IMG/VR virus record: IMGVR_UViG_2585427790_000008
Origin: a virus
Lineage: Duplodnaviria; Heunggongvirae; Uroviricota; Caudoviricetes
Length of the DNA: 14,590 bases
Direction: 5' to 3' (one strand)
The notes under the pieces were generated by a model. The model did not search any database. It had not been told where the DNA came from and was given only the letters and a program-made list of their open reading frames with translations. A program made the translations under genes and the position numbers. This document shows positions 1-14,590 of this stretch, piece by piece. Within the stretch, counting starts at the first letter, position 1, and each line of letters starts with the position of its first letter.

Positions 1-216
1 GTGAAAGTCATCATTGTTGAAGACGAATTCCTGGCACAACAGGAACTGAGCTGGCTAATTAAAGAGCACAGCCAGATGGAGATTGTCGGCACCTTTGACG
101 ACGGTCTGGACGTGTTGAAGTTTTTGCAGCATAACCGCGTCGACGCCATTTTTCTGGATATCAATATTCCGTCGCTGGATGGCGTGTTGCTGGCGCAAAA
201 CATCAGCCAGTTATAG
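1..216 (+). pseudogene. ypdB: 5' fragment (71 codons) of a LytTR-family two-component response regulator; receiver domain cut off mid-domain by the prophage insertion
   Basis: ORF translation MKVIIVEDEF...FLDINIPSLDG has the receiver-domain acidic pocket (EDE) and the phospho-acceptor Asp in FLDIN; it matches my recollection of the E. coli YpdB N-terminus up to NISQ and then hits a stop (QL*) where the native protein continues. Symbol is from memory, not from a search. Confidence 0.6.
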
Positions 217-224
217 CGCGGCGA

Positions 225-302
225 TTTTTTTGATACCGATTTGCATTTCATTTGATACCGCTGAAAAACGCCGATACGCAACTTATTTGATACTAAATCG
301 GC
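225..302. repeat. Three direct copies of TTTGATAC(C/T) (228-237, 251-260, 286-294) plus a 7-bp inverted repeat CGCCGAT/ATCGGCG (270-276 / 296-302); candidate transposase-binding end sites
   Basis: Repeats read directly from the sequence, sitting between the host junction and the mom stop. This is the position of the attR R1-R3 sites in Mu; the sequences are not identical to the Mu consensus. Confidence 0.3.
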
Positions 303-339
303 GCTTTTCTTTTGAGTTTTAGAATGAGTTTTTAAGCGT

Positions 340-1077
340 TCATTCACTCTCTTTCAAACCAGTTTTAACTGTTTGTGGTTTTGGGTAAGGCTGGACTTTG
401 AATAGCTTTGTGTTAAGGCGTTTTCTGGCTCTCTTGTCCAGAAACCGGATGTAACGAAACTGACGGAATTTATGAACACTGGCTCTGTCGATATTAGCCC
501 GCAGATGTTCACCTCGCTGTCCTCCTCGTTTGATTGCATTCTTGCAAATCTCGTGATACCACTCGCCATCAAGTTCATAGAATGTTGTTTCATGACTGCC
601 TACATAATCAAAATTGCTTGCCTGGTACACGACACCAAGACAGCCACAACGCTCATCTGCAAACGACTGAACCCACTGCACCTGCGGATAAAGTTGTCTG
701 ATTAGTTTGAGCGCGTAACTGATTGCCCTTGATTCGGAGTTTCTCGGCATACAGTCATGCAGCCATAACCGGTTAAGCTCCATATATTCGCGGTTCTGCG
801 TGCCAGTTACGACGCGTGCACCATTGTTTGGATTAAGGGCATAACCCCATTGCATTACGCCAACCAGCTCCCGTTCTGAAAATATGCCCAGATGAAGGTA
901 GGAATTATTTACGAAACGATGGCTGTAATGTTTATTGACGACGACCAGCCGGGCCAGCCAGCAACTTATTGTCTCAACCCGTAACTCACGGGAGCCATAA
1001 CCGACGATATTGTCGTTATAGTGAATAAGTTCAGGCGTGCTGATGATACGGGATGTAACTTGCTTTCTGTTCCCCAC
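340..1077 (-). CDS. mom: Mom-like DNA-modification protein (start uncertain; GTG at 1075-1077 proposed, ORF is open up to 1272)
   Basis: Last gene before the prophage end, same strand as com and overlapping its 3' end, as in Mu. I do not recall the Mom sequence, so the call is by synteny only. Confidence 0.5.
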
Positions 1078-1231
1078 GACAGGATTTCCTTGTGTATGTG
1101 GGGTGCTCTGTGGCGCTCTGAGATGTGATTTGATTGAGGGTTTTACAGCGCGGACATTTAACTTCCAGATAACTGAAGCTGGCTCGTGCCAGTAGCTTGT
1201 TACAATGTCGGCACCGTATGTTTCGATACAT
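1031..1231 (-). CDS. com: Com-like zinc-finger translational activator of mom
   Basis: [44 protein letters not shown] has the CxxC...CxxC pattern and matches Mu Com (IRCKNCNKLL...IRCPRCK...EHP). AGGAGG lies 10 nt upstream of the ATG at 1229-1231. The track ORF starts 15 codons earlier. Confidence 0.7.
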
Positions 1232-1276
1232 GGCCGCATAACCTCCTGCTTTGTTGTTGATATCTTTATCACTCAA

Positions 1277-1298
1277 TCGATCGACAAAAACGATCGAT
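1277..1298. promoter_or_regulatory. Cluster of two GATC (Dam) sites inside the short palindromes TCGATCGA / CGATCGAT, 48-65 bp upstream of com
   Basis: GATC at 1279-1282 and 1292-1295. Mu mom has a Dam/OxyR-controlled GATC cluster upstream of its promoter. Confidence 0.35.
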
Positions 1299-1487
1299 TT
1301 GATTTATTTAATTGATACAACAAATAACACGAAATGTCATTAGCGAAAATTTATGAGTTTGATCACTAATTTTAAACGGTGCTGTAACGCATAAGTGCTG
1401 AATGATTGTACATTTGAATACCGCAAAGCAAACAAATCAACTAATTTATAGAAGTCAATTGGTTAATTGCCAGCGTAAGAGGCTGCT

Positions 1488-1781
1488 ATGGACAATCATG
1501 TAACGACGAGAAATCGAAAAATGATTGAAAATGCGGAAATCTATAATGATTATTTTTCCGATTATTCAGATGCCTGCAAATACAGTTCGAGTGCGGGAGA
1601 GTTCATATGCTTCAACTTTTTTATTAAATCTTATGTTTTTCCTCCACAGCAAGAAGATGGAGGTGTGCCACCTCCTGAAATCACTTTGCACCGTATAGCC
1701 TCCGTCTCAATGATGGAGCAACAGGCTAATGAGCTGTATAGCATTCTGGGAACGATTCTACAAAAGCGTGAATCGGACTAA
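1488..1781 (+). CDS. Hypothetical protein (97 aa), AT-rich, no recognisable motif
   Basis: ORF with AAGAGG 6 nt upstream of the ATG; lies in a low-GC island between com and the esterase cluster. Confidence 0.3.
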   Translation: MDNHVTTRNRKMIENAEIYNDYFSDYSDACKYSSSAGEFICFNFFIKSYVFPPQQEDGGVPPPEITLHRIASVSMMEQQANELYSILGTILQKRESD

Positions 1782-1948
1782 TGATACCGGTTCATTTGCC
1801 TGCCCGGATGGGGAAGCAGGATTGACTGCTCCATAAGCAGCTATATTTCTGAATACGAAATACTATCCAGCGATTACATATGGCTGGATAGCGGCAAAGA
1901 TGTTTTCATTAGTGTCAAACCGGCAGAGGACACCACCGGTTTGTATTG

Positions 1949-2203
1949 TTACATCATGGTACTGTCAGTTCCGGGCTGAGCCGGGTCTGGTTGCTCTGGC
2001 TGCGCGTCGGTTTTCGGCTCATTATCAGCATCACTGGCCGCAACTGCTGGCCCAATAAGTTTTGCCAGCACTTCATCAACGTAAGTGTCGATTTGTGCCT
2101 CAAAATCCTTGCGGACCTGCGCTTTCAGCAACTTATTTACTTCACCGGAATACAGTGCCTGTTTTACCAGGTCTTCAGTGACGGTGCCTTTAATTTCTGG
2201 CAT
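1949..2203 (-). CDS. Hypothetical protein (84 aa), acidic Pro/Gln-rich C-terminus
   Basis: Strong RBS (AAGGAGGATATACATG). Preferred over the overlapping + strand ORF 1946..2332, which has no RBS. Confidence 0.45.
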   Translation of the reverse strand: MPEIKGTVTEDLVKQALYSGEVNKLLKAQVRKDFEAQIDTYVDEVLAKLIGPAVAASDADNEPKTDAQPEQPDPAQPGTDSTMM

Positions 2204-2238
2204 GTATATCCTCCTTATGCGGGAATAAAGCCCTGCAA

Positions 2239-2421
2239 TCAGGGCTGGGTCGGGTCTTTTGGGAGCGGAGTTACCTGCGCTGTTTTACTGAGTTTTTCAG
2301 CTGCTGCGTCCTCAATTTTGCGGCGAACATAATTTCTGATGGCCTTATAACCACCACTCACCAGATATAACGCACATACTGCCGTGCAGAAATACAATAA
2401 AATAAGCTGTAAAAATGTCAT
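2239..2421 (-). CDS. Small predicted single-pass membrane protein (~60 aa)
   Basis: Hydrophobic stretch FLQLILLYFCTAVCALYLV followed by a basic region. GGGAGGG lies upstream of the ATG at 2419-2421; the track ORF starts at an upstream TTG (2433). Confidence 0.4.
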   Translation of the reverse strand: MTFLQLILLYFCTAVCALYLVSGGYKAIRNYVRRKIEDAAAEKLSKTAQVTPLPKDPTQP

Positions 2422-2517
2422 TATCCCTCCCAATTATTGACATGGTGTTGACACCGGTAATATCTGTTAGGTAAAAAGGTGCACTGCATTTTTTGCTTTG
2501 GATATAACGATCTTTTT

Positions 2518-2558
2518 GCCGCCGGTTTCTTGTTTTCCCTTACCGGCGGCATTTTTTT
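2518..2558 (+). terminator. Stem-loop GCCGCCGGT-(15 nt)-ACCGGCGGC followed by ATTTTTTTAT on the + strand
   Basis: Perfect 9-bp stem with a downstream T7 run on the + strand, just 3' of the esterase stop on the opposite strand. The loop is long, so this is an uncertain terminator. Confidence 0.35.
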
Positions 2559-2565
2559 ATCCTGC

Positions 2566-4620
2566 TTACGCGTTATTCACTTCCACCACGATACTGTCAA
2601 TCAGTACCGGGTAAGTCGCATTTTTAGTGATATCGGTCACGCGCAACTTGTCTGCCGTAAACGTGCCGACCGGAGACTGCGACAGCATGAATGGTGTCCC
2701 GTCCTTACCATCAATGACCGGCGTCACCTCAATACTGTTGTTACCGGCAAAACGGAAGCCCAGCGTATGCCATTCGTTATTAAATGCGCCGAATGACCCC
2801 AGCTTCGTGTTCTGCGCCGTGTTTCCTTTGTGATACATCACGTTAAGGTCTGTGGCATCGCTCTGTACGTAGAACGATGCCAGCAGGTTATGACCGGCAT
2901 TTCCTTCCAGAGTAACCCCTTGCGGCAGGGCAGAAACCGGCCAGTACAGCGCCAGTGCGTACTGATTAGCCGTAAGCGCGCCATCGAGTTTAAAACGACA
3001 ACTGACAAGACCACCTTTACCCAGCAGGTCCGCACCATTACCAGCATCATGCTCAAGGTACCAGGGGGCTCTTCCTGTTTCCTTGGTCAGTTTCATTGCC
3101 TTACCCCCGCTGGCTCCGGCATCATCCACGATTTGAGCCTTGCCACCTCCGGCAGCCCAACCCTGTGGTGTCAACCGTCCTTCAGACTCAGATGCCCGGT
3201 AAGCAAATAGCGTACTCATCGTCGTGGTGTCTGCGGGTGGCGTGGACGGTTTTGATGGTGTATCAGGTGACGGCTTCTCATCCGGTGGTGTCACGGTCTG
3301 CCCGCGCATCAGTTCAGCCGTGCGCCCTGCATGGAGCATAATAGCTGAGGCCAGACGGTCTGAAATGACGCCCCTGCGTGCCCATGAGCTGAAATGGCTG
3401 TCACGCTGTGTCGAAACAAAACTGCCCTGGGTTCGGGATGCTGCACCGTAATACCCGACAGCCACAATATCCGGGTCTTCCGCCGGAGCATTCGTTGGCG
3501 TGCTCTGTCCATTCTCATCCGTCAGGAACGGTACAAAGAAAATTTTCTGTGCTTCCTTGCCTTTGTAGCCACCGTATACTGCCTCATATTTATCGGTGCC
3601 AGCGTTTTTCCAGTAATACGTGGTATCACCGCAAATCCACGGCACCGTGGTGGCATTTCCACTCACGCACTGCGCAGCAAGCGGAGCCAGGTCAGTTCTG
3701 AACTGCTGAACCATGGCCGTGAATAAACTATTATGCTGCTGGCTTCCTGAGGCAAGGTCTGCCTCTCCCTGCATCCAGACCACAGCCAGAAGTTTGTTTT
3801 TCGGGTTTTTCGCCAGCGCGACTTTGGTGCGGCTTACCAGGTCCTGATACAGAGGTTTACCGGCCCCCCAGCGTGAAGAATCAGCGGAAGCACCGCTGGC
3901 CTCACTGAATGAGCCGTCGGCTCCAGTGGTGAATGCTGACCCGCCACGACAACAGGGCACCAGAAGTATCCCGGCATTCTGTGGGATATAGGGAAGCAGT
4001 TTTTTGGCAATATGCAACCCCTGACCGACAGTCCCGTACTGGCCTTTTGCCAGATCAGCTTTCGGGTGGTTTATCCCGCTCATATCCTGAACATCATGCA
4101 GGCAGTGGTCTGCCGGAATGATGTCGTTGTATGTACACGACGTACCGTTGGGCGTTACCGTACTGCGGCGTGCCAGTTGCTTAATGCGTGGGTCCGGGCG
4201 GTCAAACGAATCCGGTAACGGCAGCCCCTCGCCGTAGGCCATGCCATTTGACTGACCCGCGAGAATGACAACAAAGTAATATTCCGGCTCTGAACTGCTG
4301 CCATTCGTGCTACCGGAAGGCCCGGCGTTATCCGGTGCATTCCAGTCGGAGGGCGTGAGCGTTCCGGCCACGTCAGATGTGATTGGAATGATGCCAGTCA
4401 CGCCTGAACTGGTGATTTCTGCACTGGGATTACCGGATACCGGCATTACCCATAATGGCTCTTTCGTGCTGAAGCGGATCACGCAGTCTGCGAAGGTGAT
4501 CCCCCCTTTATTACCCGAAGGGCGGAAAGGGCTTTCAATAAATGCCACCGTGCCACCGGCAACCTTGACTGAAAACTCTCCGGGCATGGCGGAGAGCATT
4601 TTCCACTTGGAGTCTGACAT
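2566..4620 (-). CDS. SGNH/SASA-family sialate O-acetylesterase-like protein (prophage NanS-p-like), 684 aa
   Basis: GQSN catalytic-serine motif (VVILAGQSNGMAYGEG) and downstream WMQGEAD motif typical of SASA esterases; Ser/Thr/Pro-rich linkers; long C-terminal beta-rich region. Confidence 0.7.
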   Translation of the reverse strand: MSDSKWKMLSAMPGEFSVKVAGGTVAFIESPFRPSGNKGGITFADCVIRFSTKEPLWVMPVSGNPSAEITSSGVTGIIPITSDVAGTLTPSDWNAPDNAGPSGSTNGSSSEPEYYFVVILAGQSNGMAYGEGLPLPDSFDRPDPRIKQLARRSTVTPNGTSCTYNDIIPADHCLHDVQDMSGINHPKADLAKGQYGTVGQGLHIAKKLLPYIPQNAGILLVPCCRGGSAFTTGADGSFSEASGASADSSRWGAGKPLYQDLVSRTKVALAKNPKNKLLAVVWMQGEADLASGSQQHNSLFTAMVQQFRTDLAPLAAQCVSGNATTVPWICGDTTYYWKNAGTDKYEAVYGGYKGKEAQKIFFVPFLTDENGQSTPTNAPAEDPDIVAVGYYGAASRTQGSFVSTQRDSHFSSWARRGVISDRLASAIMLHAGRTAELMRGQTVTPPDEKPSPDTPSKPSTPPADTTTMSTLFAYRASESEGRLTPQGWAAGGGKAQIVDDAGASGGKAMKLTKETGRAPWYLEHDAGNGADLLGKGGLVSCRFKLDGALTANQYALALYWPVSALPQGVTLEGNAGHNLLASFYVQSDATDLNVMYHKGNTAQNTKLGSFGAFNNEWHTLGFRFAGNNSIEVTPVIDGKDGTPFMLSQSPVGTFTADKLRVTDITKNATYPVLIDSIVVEVNNA

Positions 4621-4705
4621 CGTCTTTTCTGCCTGTTTCTGAATTAAACAGAGTCAGAATAGCGACCGCTGAAAAATATGTGTTTTGCGGAAATTCAAAA
4701 AAGCG

Positions 4706-5277
4706 TCACGGTACTTTTGGTGACGGAGCTGGTGAGGCAGGAAAATAACGATAAAGGGTGGAAAGGCCAATATCAAATATCAGTGCGATTTGTTTACGGG
4801 ACTCGCCATTAGCCAGCAAACGGGCGATTTGCTCCCGCTCTTTCTCTGTCAGTTTCTGAGGTCTGCCGCCATGACGCCCCTGAGCACGGGCAGCAGCAAG
4901 ACCCGCGCGTGTACGTTCAATAATGAGTTCCCGCTCCATTTCCGCCAGCGCGCCCATTATATGGAAAAGAAACGTCCCATGGGAGTGGATGTATCAATAT
5001 TGTCCGTAATGCTGCGGAAGTTAACGCCGCGTTGCCGGAGTTCTTCTGTTAAAAGGACAAGGTGCTGCATACTGCGTCCAAGGCGATCCAGTTTCCAGAC
5101 CAGCAGGGTATCCCCTGGCCGGAGTCGCTTTAATGCGCGTTTAAGTCCGGGACGCTCCCTTGTCTTACCGCTTATTCTGTCTTCGAAAAACAGCTCACAT
5201 CCTGCACATTCCAGCGCATTTCTTTGTAGCGCCGTATTCTGGTCATTTGTTGACACCCTGATATACCCAATCAGCAT
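4706..5277 (-). pseudogene. gin: Gin/Pin/Hin-family serine DNA invertase split by a -1 frameshift
   Basis: N-terminal ORF MLIGYIRVSTNDQ...PMGRFFSI* and C-terminal ORF MGALAEMERELIIERT...STLYRY match Mu Gin either side of ...MGRFFFHVMGALAEMERE. One T is missing from a T-run (+ strand A4 at 4955-4958). Confidence 0.8.
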
Positions 5278-5342
5278 ACGATTTCCTTATTATAAAAAGC
5301 CGGAATTGTCGCATGAGGAATAAAACAGAGTTAATCCTGGCT

Positions 5343-5368
5343 TTCCTGAAAACCTCGGTTTACGGGAA
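5343..5368. other. gix/hix-like 26-bp recombination site TTCCTGAAAACC-TC-GGTTTACGGGAA (invertase-proximal)
   Basis: Imperfect 12-bp dyad half-sites around a 2-bp core, resembling Mu gix and Salmonella hix; sits at the outer edge of the inverted repeat. Confidence 0.6.
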
Positions 5369-5481
5369 ACGGTAAACAGGGCGGCGAATGCCCTGCCATC
5401 GGACGGCACCGCCGTTGCCGCGAACAGGCTGGCAAATGCCCACACAATTAATGGTGTTCCCTTTGACGGGACGCAGGATAT
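5355..5481. repeat. Inverted-repeat copy (proximal), ~127 bp, imperfect, paired with 6547..6673
   Basis: The + strand 5355-5481 aligns by eye with the reverse complement of 6547-6673. Both encode [26 protein letters not shown]...[12 protein letters not shown]. Confidence 0.8.
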
Positions 5482-5707
5482 CACTATCTCATCAGGAACA
5501 GTAACCGCCATAAGACTGGGGTCGGTGACCGCACATATGCCCGGAACATGGGAAAGCTGGGATCTGAATCTGGGGGGCGGCAATGTTCTTACCGGAATTA
5601 AAGTACAGGATGTCGGTAAGAATACGGCAGATAACGTCGGCGGCGTGTATTACCGGCCGTTGCAGTATCTGTTAAATGGAGCATGGGTGACGGCTGCAAG
5701 TATATAA
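5356..5707 (+). CDS. Promoterless alternative tail-fibre C-terminal cassette (Sv'-like), silent in the present orientation
   Basis: Frame open from the crossover site to TAA at 5705-5707. Starts with the same 26 residues as the active fibre C-terminus, then diverges (...[21 protein letters not shown]...YRPLQYLLNGAWVTAASI*). Confidence 0.6.
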
Positions 5708-5715
5708 TGATATTC

Positions 5716-5740
5716 AGAAGGCCTTCCGGCCTTCTTTATT
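5716..5740 (+). terminator. Hairpin AGAAGGCC-TTCC-GGCCTTCT followed by TTTATT, between the convergent cassette and assembly-gene stops
   Basis: 8-bp perfect stem with a T-rich tail on the + strand, located between the stop at 5705-5707 and the minus-strand stop at 5739-5741. Confidence 0.4.
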
Positions 5741-6260
5741 ACTGTGGCTGCTCAGGCCATTTAATGGCGTTAAATTCAGCTTCTGTTTTAATGGCGGGGA
5801 GTTCCATTTTTTTTACCTGACTGATGTATGCCATCCATTGGGTAAGTGCTGCTCTGTCTTCATCGCTGATGGTGCCCAGTTGTAGCTCCGTTCTCCAGTC
5901 ATTAATTTTTTCATATGCCTGATTAAGATATGACTGGCGCATTGCTTCCAGTTTTCTTGCGTAGTTAACCGGAATACGGGAGATTATGCCATTATCAAAC
6001 TTCCAGTTTCCTGAAATATCCGTGCCTTCAGGGAGTTCATCGACCTCAACCACAGAAAACCCCGCAGGATACAGCGCCGAGGCGTCCTGTGATATTGAGC
6101 AGATAACGCCGCTGTCAGGTGTTATGCAAAGTTTATATTTTTTGGTGAATAATGGCAGGGATTCGTAGAAATCCTTACCATCTTCACTCTGGAAATACTG
6201 AACATTATTACCATATGGCATATTTTCAGGATAATAACGGGTTGTATTTTTTAGTTCCAT
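5739..6260 (-). CDS. Tail-fibre assembly chaperone (Mu U / Tfa-like), 173 aa
   Basis: C-terminal region ...ISGNWKFDNGII...LQLGTISDEDRAALTQWMAYISQVK...WPEQPQ resembles Mu U (...LGIISDENKQKLTEWMLYAQKV...FPEQPE); lies immediately downstream of the tail-fibre gene. Confidence 0.8.
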   Translation of the reverse strand: MELKNTTRYYPENMPYGNNVQYFQSEDGKDFYESLPLFTKKYKLCITPDSGVICSISQDASALYPAGFSVVEVDELPEGTDISGNWKFDNGIISRIPVNYARKLEAMRQSYLNQAYEKINDWRTELQLGTISDEDRAALTQWMAYISQVKKMELPAIKTEAEFNAIKWPEQPQ

Positions 6261-6311
6261 AAAATCCTCCTGGAAATAAATCTGTTTTAAAATATATTAT
6301 TTACTGACTAT

Positions 6312-7202
6312 TTATAACTGAGATACCGTAATCCATGTACCTCCGACTAATTTTTGCAGGGGTCTGAATGCTATAAAATCGTTTGAAGCATCAACTTTAC
6401 TGTCAATCTGCAGGCCTGCCATAACATTACCGTACGCAGAGTAATATGCCCCACCGTACATTACCTGCCTGTTCTCTGCTCCCAGCCTGATATCCTGGAT
6501 ATATCGGGAATCCGCATCCTGCTGTGTTATACCAGAAGTGATGTTTATGTCCTGCGTCCCGTCAAAGGGAACCCCATTAATATTTCTTGGGGTGGCGAGT
6601 CTATTCGCGGCAACGGCGGTGCCGTCCGATGGCAGAGCATTCGCCGCCCTGTTTACCGTTTCCCGTAAACCGACGTTATCGATAAAAGCCCCTTTATCCG
6701 GAATGTCTGCGCCGTTCTGCTCCCTGCGCAGGTAACGGTTATCACCTTCGCTTTTGCTGTAAACATCCAGATTATTACGGGCGGTTCCCTTATTCTCCAG
6801 GTCGGCGAGATTCTGATCCTTCGCCAGGGCATTAACGTCAGCGGGACCAAGACTGTTTTTTGTGGCAAGCGTCCCCAGACCAAGATAACCACGGGCCAGA
6901 CGCTGGGCCTCCGCACCGGCATCAGCAATTTCTTTCAGGTTATTTTTCCGGGAAAAGGCATTCGCAGCGATAATGGCTTTAATGGACAGCGTAAGCTGGT
7001 TTAACTGCGCCTTATCCGGCTGAATACTGGCTTCAGCCAGAATATTCAGCAGTTCGGCCTGGAGAATATTCAGCCAGTCCTGACCAATCCAGCTGATACC
7101 TTTTTGTCCGTCACCTTCGGTAAACCAGGTGGTGGTATTACTCTGCGCTGGTGCCAGCGCAGGCATATTCGCCACGCCGGAATTATTATCAACATGAAAC
7201 AT
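6312..7202 (-). CDS. Tail-fibre protein (Mu S-like), 296 aa, with its C-terminal third inside the invertible segment
   Basis: N-terminus [27 protein letters not shown] is typical of Mu/P2-type fibres; start overlaps the upstream stop (TAATG coupling). Confidence 0.8.
6547..6673. repeat. Inverted-repeat copy (distal), within the tail-fibre coding sequence
   Basis: Reverse complement matches 5355-5481 apart from a ~22-bp divergent patch and scattered mismatches. Confidence 0.8.
6661..6686. other. gix/hix-like 26-bp recombination site (distal); reverse complement reads TTATCGATAACG-TC-GGTTTACGGGAA
   Basis: Shares the right half-site and the TC core with the proximal site; the left half-site resembles hixR-type TTATCAAAAACC. 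Confidence 0.55.
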
Positions 7203-7762
7203 TAAATAGTCTCCTCTTCATGGCTGTTTGCATACACGTAAATAAACGTCTGCCATGCAGGCTTATAACGGTTCAGAATACATTCCAGCGCACCGCCTTC
7301 ATAAATACGCAGCGGCGTGAGAATATCATCCAGCACATTCATATTCCGGTAGCCGGTTTCACTGTTAATCGTGACAATACTGACCCACTGTGAATCCGGT
7401 GATGGCTGAATATCTATTTCATAACCAAACTCTGCCGCAAACCGGATATAAAATTCACGGTTAAGAGAGGGTTTCATCCGGTATTTATTCCCGGCATAAC
7501 GCTGACGCTCCTGAATGGTTGCGCCGGTCATATCACATTCCGGTAACCCCAGATAACGCTCCCAGTCTTCCAGCAGCAGACGAGATGAATCAGGAAAACG
7601 TTCTGCCAGCATCTGGTTACCGGTCCAGGAAACACGCTCCGTGGAATGACTGAGGCCCAGGCACAAAGCCGCAAGAACGGATGACGGCCGCTTATCCCAT
7701 GCCAGCCCGTCAGGCAGCAACTGCAACAGGGCACGCTGATGCGGGGTCAGGGTTACAGCCAT
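7202..7762 (-). CDS. Baseplate/tail protein, Mu gp48-like (DUF2313/YmfQ-like), 186 aa
   Basis: Size and position between the J-like baseplate gene and the tail fibre; start overlaps the upstream gene end. Confidence 0.65.
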
Positions 7763-8838
7763 GTGATTTCCCCCACGGTCAGCAACTCTGTATCTCCGGC
7801 CATCACGGACTTCAGCGGGCTGCGAACTTCAAAATCCTCCAGTCCTTTCACCCCTGCAACAGCCCGCCAGAATGATGAAGGCAATACAAGTCCACCCGGC
7901 CGCGATTCGTTATAAAGCAGGTCCGTTAATGCCTGTTTTACGGCAGCCTGATTTTCCGGCGTTTTGGGTACAATCCTGATCTCAAACGCCACCGGCTTAT
8001 TGGTCAGCTTAAACACGCTGATTGTCGGCCCAAGTGGCTGACCAACGGGCTGGCCCGTCGCCGGATCATCATGACTGCGGATATAATCCGCCACCCGCTT
8101 CACATCACCTTCTCCGGGGAAAATGTCAGGGTTATTATCCTGAACAAAAGTCACACCAACACTACCCGCCTCAGGCCATTCAGGCTTACACCATGCCCGC
8201 GTCACGCCCGGTACTTCCCGTGCCCAGCGTTCAAAATCATACTGTGTTCCCCCTGATGGCGGGTTCTGTACCCGGAATACCAGCCTGGACAGCAACTCCG
8301 GCACCGTTTCCACATCCGCACCACCGGTGAGTCCCGTGCCGGTGACCGTGGCTGTCTGGTTGATGCCTGCCTGTGGCGTGATAAAGGACAGGCGGGTTCC
8401 GGTCGGGGTATTTCCAGCGCGCCCCGCACTTTCCGCCTCCACATTAACATTCAGTGTTCCAGCTTTTCCGGTCGCAGAGCCGGTGATGCGGTACACAACA
8501 CCATCGCTTCGCTGAAGGAGTACGCCTTCCGTGATCCCTGCATCCGTGGTCAGCATCAGTTGTACCGGTCCGTCAGCGCGGGAAGCCGGTTTACGGATGA
8601 CACCCCAGAATGCGCAGTGTTTCAGGAGTTCGGCTTCATCAGCTTCTGTCGGAATTATCTGCCGGGAGATCCAGGCCAGATGTTCATGCTCCTGTGCTGA
8701 CAGACCCGCCAGTGCATACGCAATGGCATTCAGGGTGGTTTCATTCACGCCCGGCTGCGAACCGGGCAGGCGCTGGCTGATATCCTGTTGTGTCTGTGTG
8801 ATCAGTTGCGCCAGTGGTAAGGGCTGATAAGGCATCAT
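7753..8838 (-). CDS. Baseplate J-like protein (Mu gp47-like), 361 aa
   Basis: Size and order typical of a baseplate wedge gene; overlapping stop/start coupling with neighbours. Confidence 0.7.
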   Translation of the reverse strand: MMPYQPLPLAQLITQTQQDISQRLPGSQPGVNETTLNAIAYALAGLSAQEHEHLAWISRQIIPTEADEAELLKHCAFWGVIRKPASRADGPVQLMLTTDAGITEGVLLQRSDGVVYRITGSATGKAGTLNVNVEAESAGRAGNTPTGTRLSFITPQAGINQTATVTGTGLTGGADVETVPELLSRLVFRVQNPPSGGTQYDFERWAREVPGVTRAWCKPEWPEAGSVGVTFVQDNNPDIFPGEGDVKRVADYIRSHDDPATGQPVGQPLGPTISVFKLTNKPVAFEIRIVPKTPENQAAVKQALTDLLYNESRPGGLVLPSSFWRAVAGVKGLEDFEVRSPLKSVMAGDTELLTVGEITWL

Positions 8839-9272
8839 TCCCCCTTCATATCAGCATAAAAAATCATCGGATGTCTGCTTCCGTCCGGCAGGGTGATTTT
8901 CACGGAAAGCGAAAGGCGAGCATGCCCCACACGCATGGCATGACATACCACGGATGTGGCAGCACCGCTTTTATGCAGCCACGCCAGCGCTTCATCAGCA
9001 TAGGCCTGTGCACGGCTGACCACGGAGGACAGCGTCTTTTCACGGCTTAACAGCCAGAGACGGGAGCCAACGGGGCGCTCCCGGAAACTGTCTCCCCACC
9101 ATCCCCGACGGTCACGGGTGCCGTCAGGGATTTCATCGGAATCCAGCGCCCGCCTGTCCGTAAACAGTGAAATAATGACCGCAGTCAGCAGGCTGTTATC
9201 CGTCAGAAGATCTGCGCCGTTCAGTTGCAGGGAACCGCAACCCTGATCCCAGACGACAGCAATATCAGCCAT
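8835..9272 (-). CDS. Baseplate protein, Mu gp46 / P2 gpW-like (~145 aa)
   Basis: Start placed at the internal ATG (MADIAVVWDQ...), which overlaps the upstream gene end by 8 nt; the track ORF is extended 71 codons into the upstream gene. Confidence 0.65.
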   Translation of the reverse strand: MADIAVVWDQGCGSLQLNGADLLTDNSLLTAVIISLFTDRRALDSDEIPDGTRDRRGWWGDSFRERPVGSRLWLLSREKTLSSVVSRAQAYADEALAWLHKSGAATSVVCHAMRVGHARLSLSVKITLPDGSRHPMIFYADMKGE

Positions 9273-9879
9273 TCTCTGGTCCTCCCGTTTTGCTGCCTTC
9301 ACCGTTATCGTGATGCACATGACCTGAATAGGTGATCCCGGCAATAACCGCTTCGGACATCGTGAACGTCCCCTGTGATCTTCCGGTGCCGTCAATGGAC
9401 ACATTGCCTTTGACATGCAGGTTCTTATCCACTGTGACATTACCGGTAAAGTGAGCCTCCGGTGTATCCACCTGAACACCTTCATCGGCGTAAATCTCCA
9501 GCGTCTTACAGGTCACAATGATCCGGCCGTTCTTTGTCAGACGTATACGGTGCCCCTCATGGTGATACACGCCGGTATCTCCGGCGGTAAGTCCGGTCGG
9601 GCGACTGCGGCGGTCTTCCACCACAAGCACCACGGCCTGATCCCGTTGTCCGCCAGCACAGGCCAGAAAAACTTCCGCACCAGGCAGGGGGACGCTGATT
9701 TGCCCGTACTGCTGGGGGCGTTCAACGTCATCAAAGGTTTCACCATCCATACCGGTGATTTGCACATTCTGGATTTTCAGCGTGTCCGTTGTGCCGGTCA
9801 GTACACCACGCCCGAACAGCAGACGAACACCCCGCATCACGGGGGCCAGAAGGCGGCTGATGACTTCGTCATTCATCAT
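9265..9879 (-). CDS. Baseplate central spike protein (Mu gp45 / P2 gpV-like), 204 aa
   Basis: Size and order; Gly-rich beta-strand-like C-terminus; coupled to flanking genes. Confidence 0.7.
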   Translation of the reverse strand: MMNDEVISRLLAPVMRGVRLLFGRGVLTGTTDTLKIQNVQITGMDGETFDDVERPQQYGQISVPLPGAEVFLACAGGQRDQAVVLVVEDRRSRPTGLTAGDTGVYHHEGHRIRLTKNGRIIVTCKTLEIYADEGVQVDTPEAHFTGNVTVDKNLHVKGNVSIDGTGRSQGTFTMSEAVIAGITYSGHVHHDNGEGSKTGGPENG

Positions 9880-10993
9880 TGAATTTAATCCCCTGTTTTT
9901 TCATCTGTGCCCGCACGAAGGCGTCCACGTCACCCGCATTTCCGCTTCCGCTGTTTCCCGGCTCTGCCGGAACAATAAAGCCGTCACGGGGTGCCAGAAT
10001 CAGACGGGTGGTTTCGCCGTGATTTGCATCCAGCGAAAACTCCACCTGACAGACAAGAAGATCACGCTCTTCCACTCCGGTGCGGGGAGCCGTGACAGCC
10101 GTCAGCAGGTTGATATCCCACAACTGGCCGTTCTCCCGAAACCAGTGCCGCACGGTGGCTGTCAGGCGCACAGAGCGGGCAACCGCCCGGCGCATTTCCC
10201 GGACAGCCCTCTGGCGTGCACCGTCTGCATCAACAGCATGATCCGCCAGCACAATTTTCGGTCTGTAACGGTGGATGGCACTGTCTGTCACCGTACCAAC
10301 GGGTGCGGCCAGCGTTCCGGCTGTCAGTGCATCCCCGGCATGACCACCACCACGCCCGTGCCCCCGTACACGGTATTCACTGTGGCGCAGACGGTGATCC
10401 ACGTTGTGATCCAAATCCAGCAGATTTTCGCCCAGCGTCAGCGTGTCGCCACGCTGACTGCCGGCCTGAGTGAAAACCAGTTCACCGGCGGCATTACTGG
10501 TTACCAGGACGCCTCTGTGTCTCGCGGCCCGTGTCAGCGCATCTGCCACGGTTTCTGAGTTTTCCAGTGTGAAGGTGGAAAAGTGCCGGGCTGCCGTTGC
10601 ATCATTTACCTGCCAGCGCACCGTGACCCCGAACGGAGCACACAAATCTGAAGCAATGTGCTCCAGCGTGCGGTTCCTCCACTGGCTGCCCGGATGAATG
10701 GCTGAACAGTCCACCAGGTCACCGGTTTTATCCCGTCCGCTGAGCGTGATCTGAAAACGCGTGGCGCTGATGCGCTGCCGGACCTGATCCAGCCAGCCAG
10801 TGATCACAGGCTGACCGTCAATGCGCAATTCCAGAGACTGACCGGCACGGACGGATGACGGAAGGCGTACACCGGGCATCATTACCCCCAGTTCAAAGGA
10901 GCCCGCCAGATGTTCAAGAGAGCGACGAACACTCACCGTCAGCCAGCCGGAAAAAATCTCACCGCCCAGATACAGTTCAACCCTGCTGCTCAC
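9869..10993 (-). CDS. Baseplate hub/tail protein (Mu P/gp44, P2 gpD-like), 374 aa, GTG start
   Basis: Size and order; GTG at 10991-10993 preceded by GGAGGTGA; first gene of the retained tail module. Confidence 0.7.
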
Positions 10994-11046
10994 TAATCAC
11001 CTCCACTGAATGGCCTCCGGGAATGAACAGCGGATCAACAATACCG

Positions 11047-11454
11047 TTACGGCGCACAAAACGTTGCCAGCCGGTACTGTTCCCGGTGGCACGGTACAGG
11101 GTCACCAGTGCAGGCTCGGTGGTACGTACAGTCACTACTGTTGCACCGGGTAACGTTAATACAGCCCATCAGGCGAACCGCCTGAAACAGTGCGCGCAGC
11201 TCCTGGACTGTCTGAGTTTCCACAAACTGCGGCGGTTCCGGCAGTGCGCTTTGTTTATTCCAGTTCTCATACCAGGAGCGCAGGGAAGCAGCCACAGCAG
11301 CGTTATCGCCTTTATATTTTCCCTTACGGAAAGCCGATAATGTGCCGTCGGAAATTCCCGCCTCTCTGGCGATGGCATACTGCGTCAGTACGCCGCCATC
11401 AATAAGTTCATCAATGGTCTTGATTACATCGTTAATATCGGTCATATTATTCAC
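11047..11454 (-). pseudogene. Truncated Mu B-like transposition protein: N-terminal DNA-binding domain only, AAA+ ATPase domain deleted
   Basis: ...AIAREAGISDGTLSAFRKGKYKGDNAAVAASLRSWYENW...LPEPPQFVETQTV aligns with the MuB N-terminus (...LPEPPRFVETQTV); the Walker A box (GNPGVGKT) expected next is absent and the frame ends 35-40 codons later. Confidence 0.75.
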
Positions 11455-11527
11455 CTCGCTTGAGACAGCATTCTCCGAGACTGAAACCTCAAATAACCTG
11501 AGTCACCCCTCGGGTTATTTTTTTATT

Positions 11528-13618
11528 TCAGGCCAGCGGATCACTTTCTTTTAATTTCGCTTCGAGCAGTTGCAATCCCCGCTGGAAATTACGCTCGTAT
11601 TCTTCATCAGGTTCATCGTCAGCGACCGGTTGCTGAACGGTCACCGTATTACCCACAGGGCGGTATATGTTTTCCAGCCAGGGCTCCTGCGGCTTGTGCT
11701 CCAGCACGTTGACAACCTCATCCTCGGCATCACGGATTTTTTCCTCTGCGCGTTTACGCATGCCTTTAAGGCGCTGCTGCTGTTTGTAGTATTCCGCGCT
11801 GACAGGGAAGGCTTCGCGTTTATTGCCGTCCCATACCGCCTCGCAAATCACGCTGCCATCCGGGCGGCGCACGGTAATTCGTTCGGCATCATGAATGTCA
11901 TAGCTGATAAGTACCTTACGGCCATGCTCGTCACGCAGCTCGGGCGCGTAGTAAATATTATTCAGCCAGCGTATTTCACAGCGTCTTACAGGGCGCTCCA
12001 CCATCGGCCGGAACATATCCCGCAGTTCAACATCGGACAGCCATTCAATTTCCGTGTCCTCTTCCGCCAGGCGTTTTTTTCTGAACTCCGCCGGGCTGTA
12101 ATGTTTACCGTTCGGCTTCATGGGTAATTCATCGTGCGGCCGGTTGTTGTACCACTCAACACCGTCACGAATGGCATCAATCAGTTCAGACCAGGACGGT
12201 AAATCACGCATCGCTGACTGCTGCCGGGCGTTCAGCCGTTTGCCCTGTTGCAGGGCACTGAATGCCGAGCGTAAATCGCGGTTGGTTTTACGTAACGTCT
12301 CGCGATCTGCTCCTTTCCCGAAATAGGTGCGGTATTTACGGGCTATGCGCATCGGTAATGTGCGGTTAAGCCGTTCGATAATGCCCCGTCCCTGCGGATT
12401 ACCGGCAATCCCTGTCGGGTGATTAATCCCCAGTCGTGGCAGTATCCCCACAATCTCCTTATCCAGGACGTCGGCGGTTTCCCCGGAGCCATTATCCGAG
12501 TAATACAGAAACGGTTTGCCATGATGGCGAATACCGTGCTGTATGGCACCGGCTACGGCGAAAACATTTTCAGCCAGGTCAAGGCTCCAGCCCACCACAA
12601 AGCGCGTGCCACCGTCGATAACAAAGGTCACTTCCGGTGCGAATGGCCGCCCGTGAACCGGGTGCGCGCATTTCAGCTTCATGCCGTGACCGTCACCAAT
12701 CCAGACATAATTCACCGGCATTCTGGACCAGTCGCGGCGCGTGAATCCCTCAAGCTGACGGTATTCACTGCCAGTTACCCGGCCTTTTTGTTTCACCACT
12801 TCCGGCAGTTTCTTCATTGCGCGGCGAATGGTGTCATAAGAGGGCATGATATCGAGCATATAAGGCTCATCAGCGTGCCGGTGCTGCCATTCAGCAACAA
12901 AATCCTCGTAAGCCTCGGTCATTGGTCGGCCGTTTGACTGGCGATACTGCGCCAGAAATTCGGGCAGCCAGTTAATATCTTCGGCTTTTATTTCCTGGCG
13001 TTTACCCGGTGCCAGTAAAAGCAGGCGTTCAGCGGCGTTCTGTGCCTTGTTAAAGGCCGCAATCCAGCGTTTCAGCGTGATTTCACTCAACGCGCGGCTG
13101 TTTCCCTTTTTGGCGTTCGCCGTCTCAACCATTGCCACAATGCGCTCGTCCAGTTGTGATCGTGCCAGGCTGTTAACGAGGAACCGGATAGCCTTAGCGC
13201 AACTAAAGCCGGGTTGTTGCGCGATTTTCAGCACCTCGCTGACGATCGCTATTCGTGCCTCTGCCACTTTACGTTGGTTTTCAGTCAGGGCATTGAGGCG
13301 TTCGACCATCAGTTGGGGTGATCCGCGATATGCCTCCACCGCATCAACCACGGCAGGTGAGCGTCTGGCCTTTGTCACCACCGGAGCCGGTGATTCATCG
13401 GCTTTTTGCGTCATCAGTTGCAGGGCGTAGCGTTCACGTAATGCCTGCTGCGTCACTTCAGGTAAACAGTCGATGCTGTATTCAGTTGCTTTAGAGCCTG
13501 AGCGACGACGGGAACAACAGCTTTTCCCTTGTACGTAACGTTGTAATGCCTGGCGAATACCTTTTGTTGTAGCAGGCATTCCGGGCGCGCCAATCAGTTC
13601 TTTTGCAATGACATACAT
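11528..13618 (-). CDS. Mu A-like DDE transposase, 696 aa, apparently intact
   Basis: Length and position after ner; candidate DDE residues in WIGDGH, YYSDNGSGE and IIERLNR, spaced as in MuA. Confidence 0.8.
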   Translation of the reverse strand: MYVIAKELIGAPGMPATTKGIRQALQRYVQGKSCCSRRRSGSKATEYSIDCLPEVTQQALRERYALQLMTQKADESPAPVVTKARRSPAVVDAVEAYRGSPQLMVERLNALTENQRKVAEARIAIVSEVLKIAQQPGFSCAKAIRFLVNSLARSQLDERIVAMVETANAKKGNSRALSEITLKRWIAAFNKAQNAAERLLLLAPGKRQEIKAEDINWLPEFLAQYRQSNGRPMTEAYEDFVAEWQHRHADEPYMLDIMPSYDTIRRAMKKLPEVVKQKGRVTGSEYRQLEGFTRRDWSRMPVNYVWIGDGHGMKLKCAHPVHGRPFAPEVTFVIDGGTRFVVGWSLDLAENVFAVAGAIQHGIRHHGKPFLYYSDNGSGETADVLDKEIVGILPRLGINHPTGIAGNPQGRGIIERLNRTLPMRIARKYRTYFGKGADRETLRKTNRDLRSAFSALQQGKRLNARQQSAMRDLPSWSELIDAIRDGVEWYNNRPHDELPMKPNGKHYSPAEFRKKRLAEEDTEIEWLSDVELRDMFRPMVERPVRRCEIRWLNNIYYAPELRDEHGRKVLISYDIHDAERITVRRPDGSVICEAVWDGNKREAFPVSAEYYKQQQRLKGMRKRAEEKIRDAEDEVVNVLEHKPQEPWLENIYRPVGNTVTVQQPVADDEPDEEYERNFQRGLQLLEAKLKESDPLA

Positions 13619-13619
13619 A

Positions 13620-13868
13620 TCATGACGCCTTTCTCATATAGCTCTTAACCTGGTATCGACTGGGCCAGATTTCTTCAGGTGATACCCCAAGAGCATCAGC
13701 AATTATTTGCTGATACGGTCGGCAAGGAGTACGTAATACGCTTTTCAGCGAATCCCTGCTGTAACCAGCCTTTAAAGATAAAGAGCGCAGTGATAAGCCA
13801 GCCATGTGTAAGCGCGCCTTGATGATTTCAGGCGGCCAATCGTGATCTGAAACTTCTCTTCTACTCAT
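13620..13868 (-). CDS. ner: Ner-like DNA-binding regulator, 82 aa
   Basis: ...LSLRSLSLKAGYSRDSL...QQIIADALGVSPEEIWPSRY matches Mu Ner (...LSLSALSRQFGY...EQIIANALETKPEVIWPSRY); RBS GAGGAAG upstream; ends 1 nt before the A start. Confidence 0.85.
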   Translation of the reverse strand: MSRREVSDHDWPPEIIKARLHMAGLSLRSLSLKAGYSRDSLKSVLRTPCRPYQQIIADALGVSPEEIWPSRYQVKSYMRKAS

Positions 13869-14059
13869 ACTTCCTCTATTCTAAAAAGTTACCCGCGCGG
13901 ATATTCGTGCGGATATCTGTACGGGTAAATAATGCATCACCAAAAATACCAAATCAAGGTATTTTTGGTATTTTTGGCTAATTTTTGCTTTTACCCTTAT
14001 TTTTCAATTGGATAAATAGAAAGAAACCTTTCCTTAGAAAAGCACCAAGAGGTATCTTT
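13869..14059. promoter_or_regulatory. Divergent repressor/ner control region with operator-like palindromes
   Basis: CCAAAAATACC-7 nt-GGTATTTTTGG followed by a tandem TATTTTTGG, between divergently oriented c and ner (~13941-13976). Confidence 0.5.
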
Positions 14060-14590
14060 ATGTCGCAGGGAAAAGAACCTGTTATTGAACGTATTGGAAT
14101 GCTTACAAAGCGCTACCCTTCAAGAAGTGCAGCTGCCAGAGCGTGGGGAATCAATATCAACACATTAAACAGCTATTTCAAGGGAGGACAAACACAACCA
14201 GCCCCCAGAGAAAGTATCCTTATACGAATTTCTGAAAGTGAAGGCGTTAGTCTTGAGTGGCTTAAAGAGGGCAAGGGTGAATTACCAAACGATATTGGTA
14301 TTTATGGTAATTTTGGTTGTTCTGGTGATAAGGGAGATCAGCTTACACAGATGCTTTCATTCCTTACGAAAGACGAACGAGAACAGTTAACCAATCTCCT
14401 TGCTCGCAAAGGTGTAGAGACGGTTCTGACACTGCTGAATAAAGAAAACCAGGATTTATTACAACTAGAAGGCAGGAAGCGCCTGGCTGCGTTGATGATT
14501 GTAGATATGCCAGACGATTGCGTCAGAGAGATTTTGGAAAAAACCGAGACAAGTAGGCAATCAAATCCGGTAGAATCTAAAGCGGGTTAG
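14060..14590 (+). CDS. Mu c-type prophage repressor (176 aa); stop codon is the last 3 nt of the window
   Basis: Divergent from ner across an operator region; start chosen at the ATG with AAGAGG 7 nt upstream (the track ORF starts 25 codons earlier at 13985). Confidence 0.65.
   Translation: MSQGKEPVIERIGMLTKRYPSRSAAARAWGININTLNSYFKGGQTQPAPRESILIRISESEGVSLEWLKEGKGELPNDIGIYGNFGCSGDKGDQLTQMLSFLTKDEREQLTNLLARKGVETVLTLLNKENQDLLQLEGRKRLAALMIVDMPDDCVREILEKTETSRQSNPVESKAG

Follow-up and report, generated by a model that had tools for sequence, protein, structure and literature searches.

Results

Gene content of the locus

The window (the whole stretch of DNA that was analysed, 14,590 nucleotides) opens with the 5' end of the LytTR-family response-regulator gene ypdB and continues into a transposable element of the Mu type. 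This element is 14,629 bp long, extending from window position 212 to position 14,840 on coordinates carried past the window's end. Its features, together with those of the adjoining host sequence, are as follows.

1-216, plus strand: truncated open reading frame of 71 codons, whose exact 71-aa product occurs on 164 public contigs
208-211: one copy of the target-site duplication, CAGT; its partner directly follows the left end, 250 bp past the end of the window
212-310: prophage right end (attR), with the terminus TATAGCGCGGCG... and three TTTGATAY repeats
340-1077, minus strand: mom, a DNA-modification gene (Pfam Mom, 7.8e-78; RefSeq annotation of the identical protein WP_000528246.1)
1031-1231, minus strand, overlapping mom: com, translational activator of mom (Pfam Zn_ribbon_Com, 7.5e-13)
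1521-1781, plus strand: small hypothetical gene
1949-2203, minus strand: DUF826 gene
2239-2421, minus strand: DUF1378 gene
2566-4620, minus strand: cargo gene for a 684-aa homologue of NanS-p-type sialate O-acetylesterases (Pfam SASA and DUF6645)
4706-5277, minus strand: pseudogene of a Gin-type serine invertase (Pfam Resolvase and HTH_7, split over two open reading frames)
5339-6690: invertible (G-segment-like) tail-fibre region, with inverted repeats of about 140 bp and a gix-like core at 5350
5739-6260, minus strand: tail-fibre assembly gene within the invertible region (Caudo_TAP)
6312-7202, minus strand: tail fibre (phrog_1833)
7202-7762, minus strand: gp48 (Pfam Phage_Mu_Gp48)
7753-8838, minus strand: gp47/J (Pfam Baseplate_J)
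8835-9272, minus strand: gp46 (Pfam GP46)
9265-9879, minus strand: gp45/V (Pfam Phage_Mu_Gp45)
9869-10993, minus strand: gp44/P (Pfam GpP)
10977-11152, minus strand: 3' remnant of a DNA-circularisation (N-like) gene; the alignment to an intact O157-type prophage ends at 11152
11047-11445, minus strand: 132-aa open reading frame in which the start of the MuB-like gene is fused out of frame to N-gene DNA; the exact product occurs on 43 contigs
11151-11152: junction of an internal deletion, with a 2-bp microhomology, TA, from a three-way comparison with intact copies
11151-11445, minus strand: remnant of a MuB-like ATPase gene, about the first 98 codons
11528-13618, minus strand: Mu-type DDE transposase (A protein), full-length at 696 aa (Mu-transpos_C, 2.1e-17; HTH_Tnp_Mu_1, 2.2e-6; phrog_310, 3.4e-211)
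13620-13868, minus strand: ner-like early regulator (Pfam HTH_35, 2.5e-19; phrog_769)
14060-14590, plus strand: c-like repressor of 176 aa (phrog_3037, 6.7e-61; an annotated CDS in relatives)

The transposase has the same length as in full-length prophages, and the repressor gene is transcribed toward the left end and the 3' fragment of ypdB. The invertase gene carries a -1 frameshift near 4957, where a run of five T residues has become four; this T4 frameshift is common to every ypdB carrier that is readable at the site. Despite the frameshift, the invertible segment of strain DLI.5a (L001) and of contig L023 is flipped relative to the window, which suggests that an invertase acted in trans or that slippage occurred at the T run.

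The 684-aa esterase homologue matches two solved structures, NanS (PDB 3PT5, 1.8e-117) and the C-terminal domain of NanS-p (6YP6, 7e-98). Its gene and those for DUF826 and DUF1378 form the cargo of this Mu-type element, with the invertase gene on one side and com/mom on the other. The three cargo genes are all annotated at the same position in a full-length copy that resides in citF, where the esterase gene is marked as frameshifted.

The junction within ypdB

A preliminary description of this DNA had proposed a Mu-like prophage inside a ypdB-like gene, with ypdB as the tentative name of the gene. Both points hold, as the host part is 100% identical to ypdB, RefSeq annotates the gene as such, and the inserted part carries a Mu-type gene set. 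The plus-strand ypdB portion occupies window 1-211, corresponding to codons 1-70 and the first base of codon 71. In 5,423 of 5,426 complete E. coli genomes, window 1-212 matches ypdB at 100%; the match extends past base 212 in only three of those genomes. Where intact ypdB reads ...CAGTTCGCCCATAAA..., the window reads ...CAGTTATAGCGCGG...; in a longer view, the uninterrupted gene has ...ATCAGCCAGTTCGCCCATAAA... and the window ...ATCAGCCAGTTATAGCGCGGCGATTTTTTTGATACC....

The uninterrupted gene thus runs on beyond the break point rather than ending there, and the comparison places the junction at 211/212, with T212 fitting ypdB and phage alike. Codon 71 changes from TTC (Phe) in intact ypdB to TTA (Leu) in the window. 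Because intact ypdB continues differently past the break, the TAG at 214-216 is supplied by the phage; the receiver domain was correctly described as ending after 71 codons at this stop. The 3' end of a mom-like gene, expected within about 120 bp, is indeed met at 340. Only the position of the phage right end, previously put at about 217-235, needs to be moved, since the phage begins at 212.

The product of the 71-codon frame is a partial Response_reg domain (Pfam, 2e-14) covering profile positions 1-66 of 111. This N-terminal receiver stub includes the phospho-acceptor Asp53 and is missing the LytTR DNA-binding domain, the coding part of which lies beyond the prophage. In every carrier record, ypdA is found directly upstream and ypdC downstream of ypdB. 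In the carrier genomes, RefSeq already marks ypdB as a split pseudogene with Mom and Mu-transposase genes beside it.

The ypdB of strain E2863 (L002) was used as the reference for the junction only, and the restoration of the reading frame described below relied on the carriers' own 3' fragments. E2863 is an unrelated STEC strain whose ypdB (L002 2501-3235) has a different lesion, the internal stop Q122*; loss of ypdB is therefore not unique to carriers of the Mu-type element.

The left end and in-silico restoration of ypdB

As the window ends 250 bp before the left end is reached, the second junction is known from other records. In the closed genomes of DLI.5a, AST46, and TOE17, the other end reads ...TGATTCACCTGGTTACA up to the junction and CAGTTCGCCCATAAACC... 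past it, the latter being the rest of ypdB, followed by ypdC. Contigs with the architecture of the window were retrieved by looking up the 132-aa fusion frame, which is specific to the window's deletion; those that continue into ypdB are 99.8-100% identical to the window. One of them, L031 (GCA_000714225.1), is 100% identical to window 1047-14590 and places the left end 250 bp past the point where the window ends, followed by CAGTTCGCC..., again the rest of ypdB. On JARIVZ010000013.1 (L021 plus L033), both junctions and the window-type deletion occur on a single contig at 99.9% identity. Thus, the 3' part of ypdB, which the preliminary description had suggested looking for beyond the window's right edge, is present past the other prophage end in three complete genomes and in window-like contigs. 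In-silico removal of the element together with one copy of the repeat gives a ypdB of 244 codons (L030, L032, and L033).

In L031, the detached 3' fragment of ypdB (6078-6623) has acquired a secondary nonsense mutation, W119*. The same base change is found in L034, where it probably creates the same stop, and is absent from L030, L032, and L033. The mutation is consistent with decay of a pseudogene after the insertion.

Internal deletion

A 38,239-bp copy in citF of strain JE86-ST05 (L014) provided the full-length reference. Relative to this copy, about 24.4 kb is absent from the element of the window, the break corresponding to L014 coordinates 10318 and 34748; its N side was defined by an O157-type copy and its B side by TOE17. 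The lost genes are those for the head, protease, portal, terminase, lysis, sheath, tube, and tape measure. The MuB-like gene, complete (310 aa; AAA_22, Phage-MuB_C) in sister copies at ypdB and in full-length relatives, has also gone for the most part. That the deletion junction shares only the dinucleotide TA points to illegitimate recombination and not to a transposase acting at an end.

Besides its two ends, the remnant retains a repressor gene, the ner-like gene, and an intact transposase gene. Judged by its genes, it is a defective element, predicted to be unable to form particles. The earlier view of a Mu-like prophage is therefore right as to the type of element and needs qualification as to its state, the window's copy being a deletion remnant of 14,629 bp instead of a full prophage. 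The 132-aa fusion frame, with its 43 contigs, offers a convenient marker of the sub-lineage.

Carriers and shared ancestry

Among 5,426 complete E. coli genomes, three carry the same ypdB junction, which is also found on 164 public contigs. The closed carrier genomes come from Hong Kong, Japan, and Myanmar; E. coli 5-172-05_S4_C2 and C3 are named sources of the 71-residue product or the fusion frame. Carriers include isolates as well as metagenome assemblies, at least one of which is from human gut. None of the 185,579 species-representative genomes scanned contained the exact 42-nt junction; the allele is sub-specific. Our search of the literature on ypdB with a Mu-like insertion did not turn up any paper describing it.

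The junction base, the orientation, and the T4 frameshift are common to all carriers examined, and their phage DNA is 99.7-100% identical. At least five deletion architectures exist at ypdB: that of the window, that of TOE17, that of DLI.5a and AST46, and those of L024 and L025. The window has baseplate genes that TOE17 lost, and TOE17 has early and head genes that the window lost. Since each keeps genes that the other lacks, these two deletions must be independent and derive from a full-length ancestor at ypdB. One founding insertion followed by decay is the simplest account of these sequences.

In L025 (12566-14500), a deletion has left only the last 168 residues of the esterase homologue, fused directly to pieces of GpP and of a protease, so the cargo gene has not been kept in all descendants.

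These data bear on three other ways of explaining the locus. Given that this mobile phage family inserts into many different genes, ypdB might be a hotspot at which the carriers gained the phage independently in the same position. Such repeated acquisition would have to reproduce the junction base, the orientation, nearly identical phage DNA, and the same T4 frameshift, and only three of the 283 right-end copies found in complete genomes are at ypdB while the other sampled sites all differ; we consider it very unlikely. A complete and inducible prophage of which the window captures only a part would agree with the presence of the right end, the left-end regulatory genes, and a full-length transposase. 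Yet the window needs only 14.6 kb to reach from the right end to a point 250 bp from the left end, whereas the full copy measures 38.2 kb, and the morphogenetic and lysis genes listed above are absent along with most of the MuB-like gene, which leaves this explanation with scarcely any probability. Repeated prophage DNA often breaks assemblies, and for that reason we also considered a chimera or misjoin, for which no support was found. The same junction recurs in three closed genomes and on 164 contigs assembled from isolates and from gut metagenomes, so the chance of an assembly artifact is negligible. Descent from a single insertion at ypdB is the reading that we retain.

Termini and the target repeat

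Within the right end, TTTGATAY repeats at 229, 251, and 286 (plus strand) are putative transposase-binding sites. On the window strand, the motif occurs at these three positions only in the 14.8-kb element (extended coordinates), and it is mirrored three times at the left end; besides these left-end three, the complement has one further copy, at 4770.

At ypdB alone, the length of the target repeat is ambiguous between CAGT and CAGTT, as the next target base is a T. We therefore compared insertions at other sites. The right-end sequence ATAGCGCGGCG... adjoins 23 different flanks, and the base preceding it is always T; these right junctions include seven other complete genomes, two Stx-phage records, and 13 IMG/VR contigs. 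Both ends could be paired for 11 insertions: ypdB, citF, two Stx phages, five chromosomal sites, and two IMG/VR pairs, the last two matched only by a shared genome identifier and a matching 4-mer. Two further IMG/VR genome identifiers, whose right and left flanks mismatched, were left out, and in JKHS016 the left end was not found at the expected distance.

A perfect 4-bp repeat was present in all 11 paired insertions, with a pyrimidine as its first base in 10 of them. Next to the left end, six pairs have A, A, C, G, C or G as the fifth base, making an extension to 5 bp impossible there. In the remaining five of 11 it is T, a proportion not significantly above the chance expectation of 25% (p = 0.11). 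The records LC727895 and LC727881 carry, without comment, 4-nt duplications that their depositors annotated at exactly these positions. A 5-bp repeat shifted by one base the other way, with a left end one base shorter, was ruled out by the variable right-flank base before the 4-mer.

Since T is invariant before ATAGCG while the fifth base varies in the other copy of the repeat, T212 belongs to the phage. Read in this manner from aligned insertions, the phage starts at 212 (TATAGCG...), the repeat is CAGT rather than the 5-bp duplication anticipated in the preliminary description, and the apparent fifth base at ypdB is a coincidence. The canonical Mu pattern would instead have the phage begin at 213 (ATAGCG...) and leave the repeat CAGTT. 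Mu itself makes 5-bp target repeats and has CA-3' termini, and a 5-bp reading can be accommodated at ypdB and at four other sites (CAGTT, CGAAT, TGCGT, TACGT, and TCACT). Nevertheless, it would not explain a T before ATAGCG at all 23 distinct insertion sites, and true copies of a duplication cannot differ as the fifth bases do in six of the 11 pairs; it also departs from the 4-nt duplications annotated by the depositors. We regard the 5-bp pattern as improbable and proceed with the 4-bp repeat.

The left end begins TGTAACC..., and the right end TATAGCG.... On the transferred strands, the termini are ...GGTTACA-3' at the left and ...GCGCTATA-3' at the right, that is, CA-3' and TA-3', respectively. 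STEC1587, a relative, has TATA at the left end too. These comparisons make it likely that the Sp18-type Mu-like phages of E. coli differ from Mu in their transposition, using a stagger of 4 nt in place of 5 nt and a right terminus that ends in TA-3' in place of CA-3'. A literature search on the repeat length of Mu-like phages (4-bp, Sp18, target-site duplication) found no statement of a 4-nt stagger or of TA-3'.

Discussion

Relation to known elements and systems

The right end of the element (window 213-560) has 283 counterparts with 94-100% identity, spread over 232 complete E. coli genomes, of which many are O157, O26, O111 or O121 (STEC). A survey of STEC CC119 described Mu-like phages similar to Sp18 of O157:H7 Sakai (PMC10132054). 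The element resembles Sp18-type prophages in its baseplate block, which is 99% identical to O157 copies, and in gene order, the locations of these prophages being variable. It differs in that the copy in the window is a 14.6-kb remnant fixed at one site, with its invertase gene frameshifted. A megablast search of the window against the phage collection returned no close deposited phage; the only matches were to the Mu-like inserts of two Stx phage records (about 82%) and Yersinia Mu-like phages (81% over the transposase).

With Mu and D108 the element shares its layout: the repressor, ner, and A genes at the left end, where B survives in the window as about its first 98 codons; com-mom at the opposite end; the baseplate genes gp44-48; a Gin-type invertase gene with its invertible tail-fibre segment; three putative transposase-site repeats per end; and insertion into genes at many sites. 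In contrast to Mu, which has CA-3' termini and a 5-bp repeat, the element has TA-3' at the right and a repeat of 4 bp, and cargo (the NanS-p homologue, DUF826, and DUF1378) separates the invertase gene from com; megablast found no match between the window and Mu. A phmmer search of the transposase against solved structures retrieved no MuA chain at E <= 0.01 and hit retroviral integrase cores only (E about 2e-4). By this measure the transposase is a very diverged A protein, although Pfam detects its Mu-specific N- and C-terminal domains.

The host gene connects the locus to the YpdA/YpdB (PyrS/PyrR) system through the ypdB 5' end in the window and the ypdA and ypdC neighbours in carriers. The regulator differs here in being split after residue 70, with W119* in the 3' fragment of the window's twin contig. 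As to the EHEC NanS-p esterases, the 684-aa product matches NanS and the NanS-p C-terminal domain, but its gene resides on a Mu-type element and not on a lambdoid Stx prophage, and its activity is a prediction.

Proposed mechanism and consequence

We conclude that, almost certainly, an Sp18-type Mu-like phage integrated in ypdB of a lineage ancestor with the target repeat CAGT and then decayed, presumably leaving the regulator null. The junctions, the repeat, the gene content, the deletion, the shared ancestry, and the reading frame restored on in-silico excision were all read directly from the records. DDE transposition would have taken place into codon 70/71 of ypdB in the ancestor of one E. 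coli lineage. The 3' ends (...TACA-3' at the left, ...TATA-3' at the right) would have been joined to target phosphates presumably 4 nt apart, and gap repair would then have duplicated CAGT. Later, an illegitimate deletion of 24.4 kb would have removed the DNA from the N-like tail gene to about codon 98 of the MuB-like gene, if the events occurred in this order.

Because the stub keeps Asp53 but not the remainder of the receiver fold, and the LytTR domain is encoded an element-length away, we infer that carriers have lost YpdB function. YpdA and YpdB form a pyruvate-responsive two-component system, and yhjX is induced by pyruvate through YpdB. This pyruvate-dependent induction of yhjX should be lost in carriers. 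It is possible that ypdC has become uncoupled from the ypdA promoter and that it receives read-through from the outward-facing repressor gene; in a scan of the stretch separating the repressor gene from the ypdB 3' fragment, terminator and promoter patterns were about as frequent as chance predicts.

The locus is an ordinary gene knock-out caused by a known kind of phage and now inherited by a whole bacterial lineage. It would provide a clean natural null allele of the pyruvate-sensing YpdA/YpdB regulator, carried by an E. coli lineage, and a single insertion in at least five deletion states constitutes a small natural series of prophage decay. Neither the allele nor the series alters existing knowledge of Mu-type phages or YpdB. 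The only departure from the textbook is the 4-bp repeat with the TA-3' terminus, which, if true, would be a modest refinement of transposable-phage biology. A 4-nt stagger would then go with a transposase too diverged for a sequence search to find MuA.

A further rearrangement or insertion beside ypdB

On L033 (1-4428; GCA_030205795.1), homology to ypdC ends about 250 bp before the 3' end of the gene. The break abuts early genes of a different transposable-phage-like element, encoding an HTH_3 repressor, DUF3102, GemA, and Mor. This carrier has undergone a second rearrangement or insertion right beside the first.
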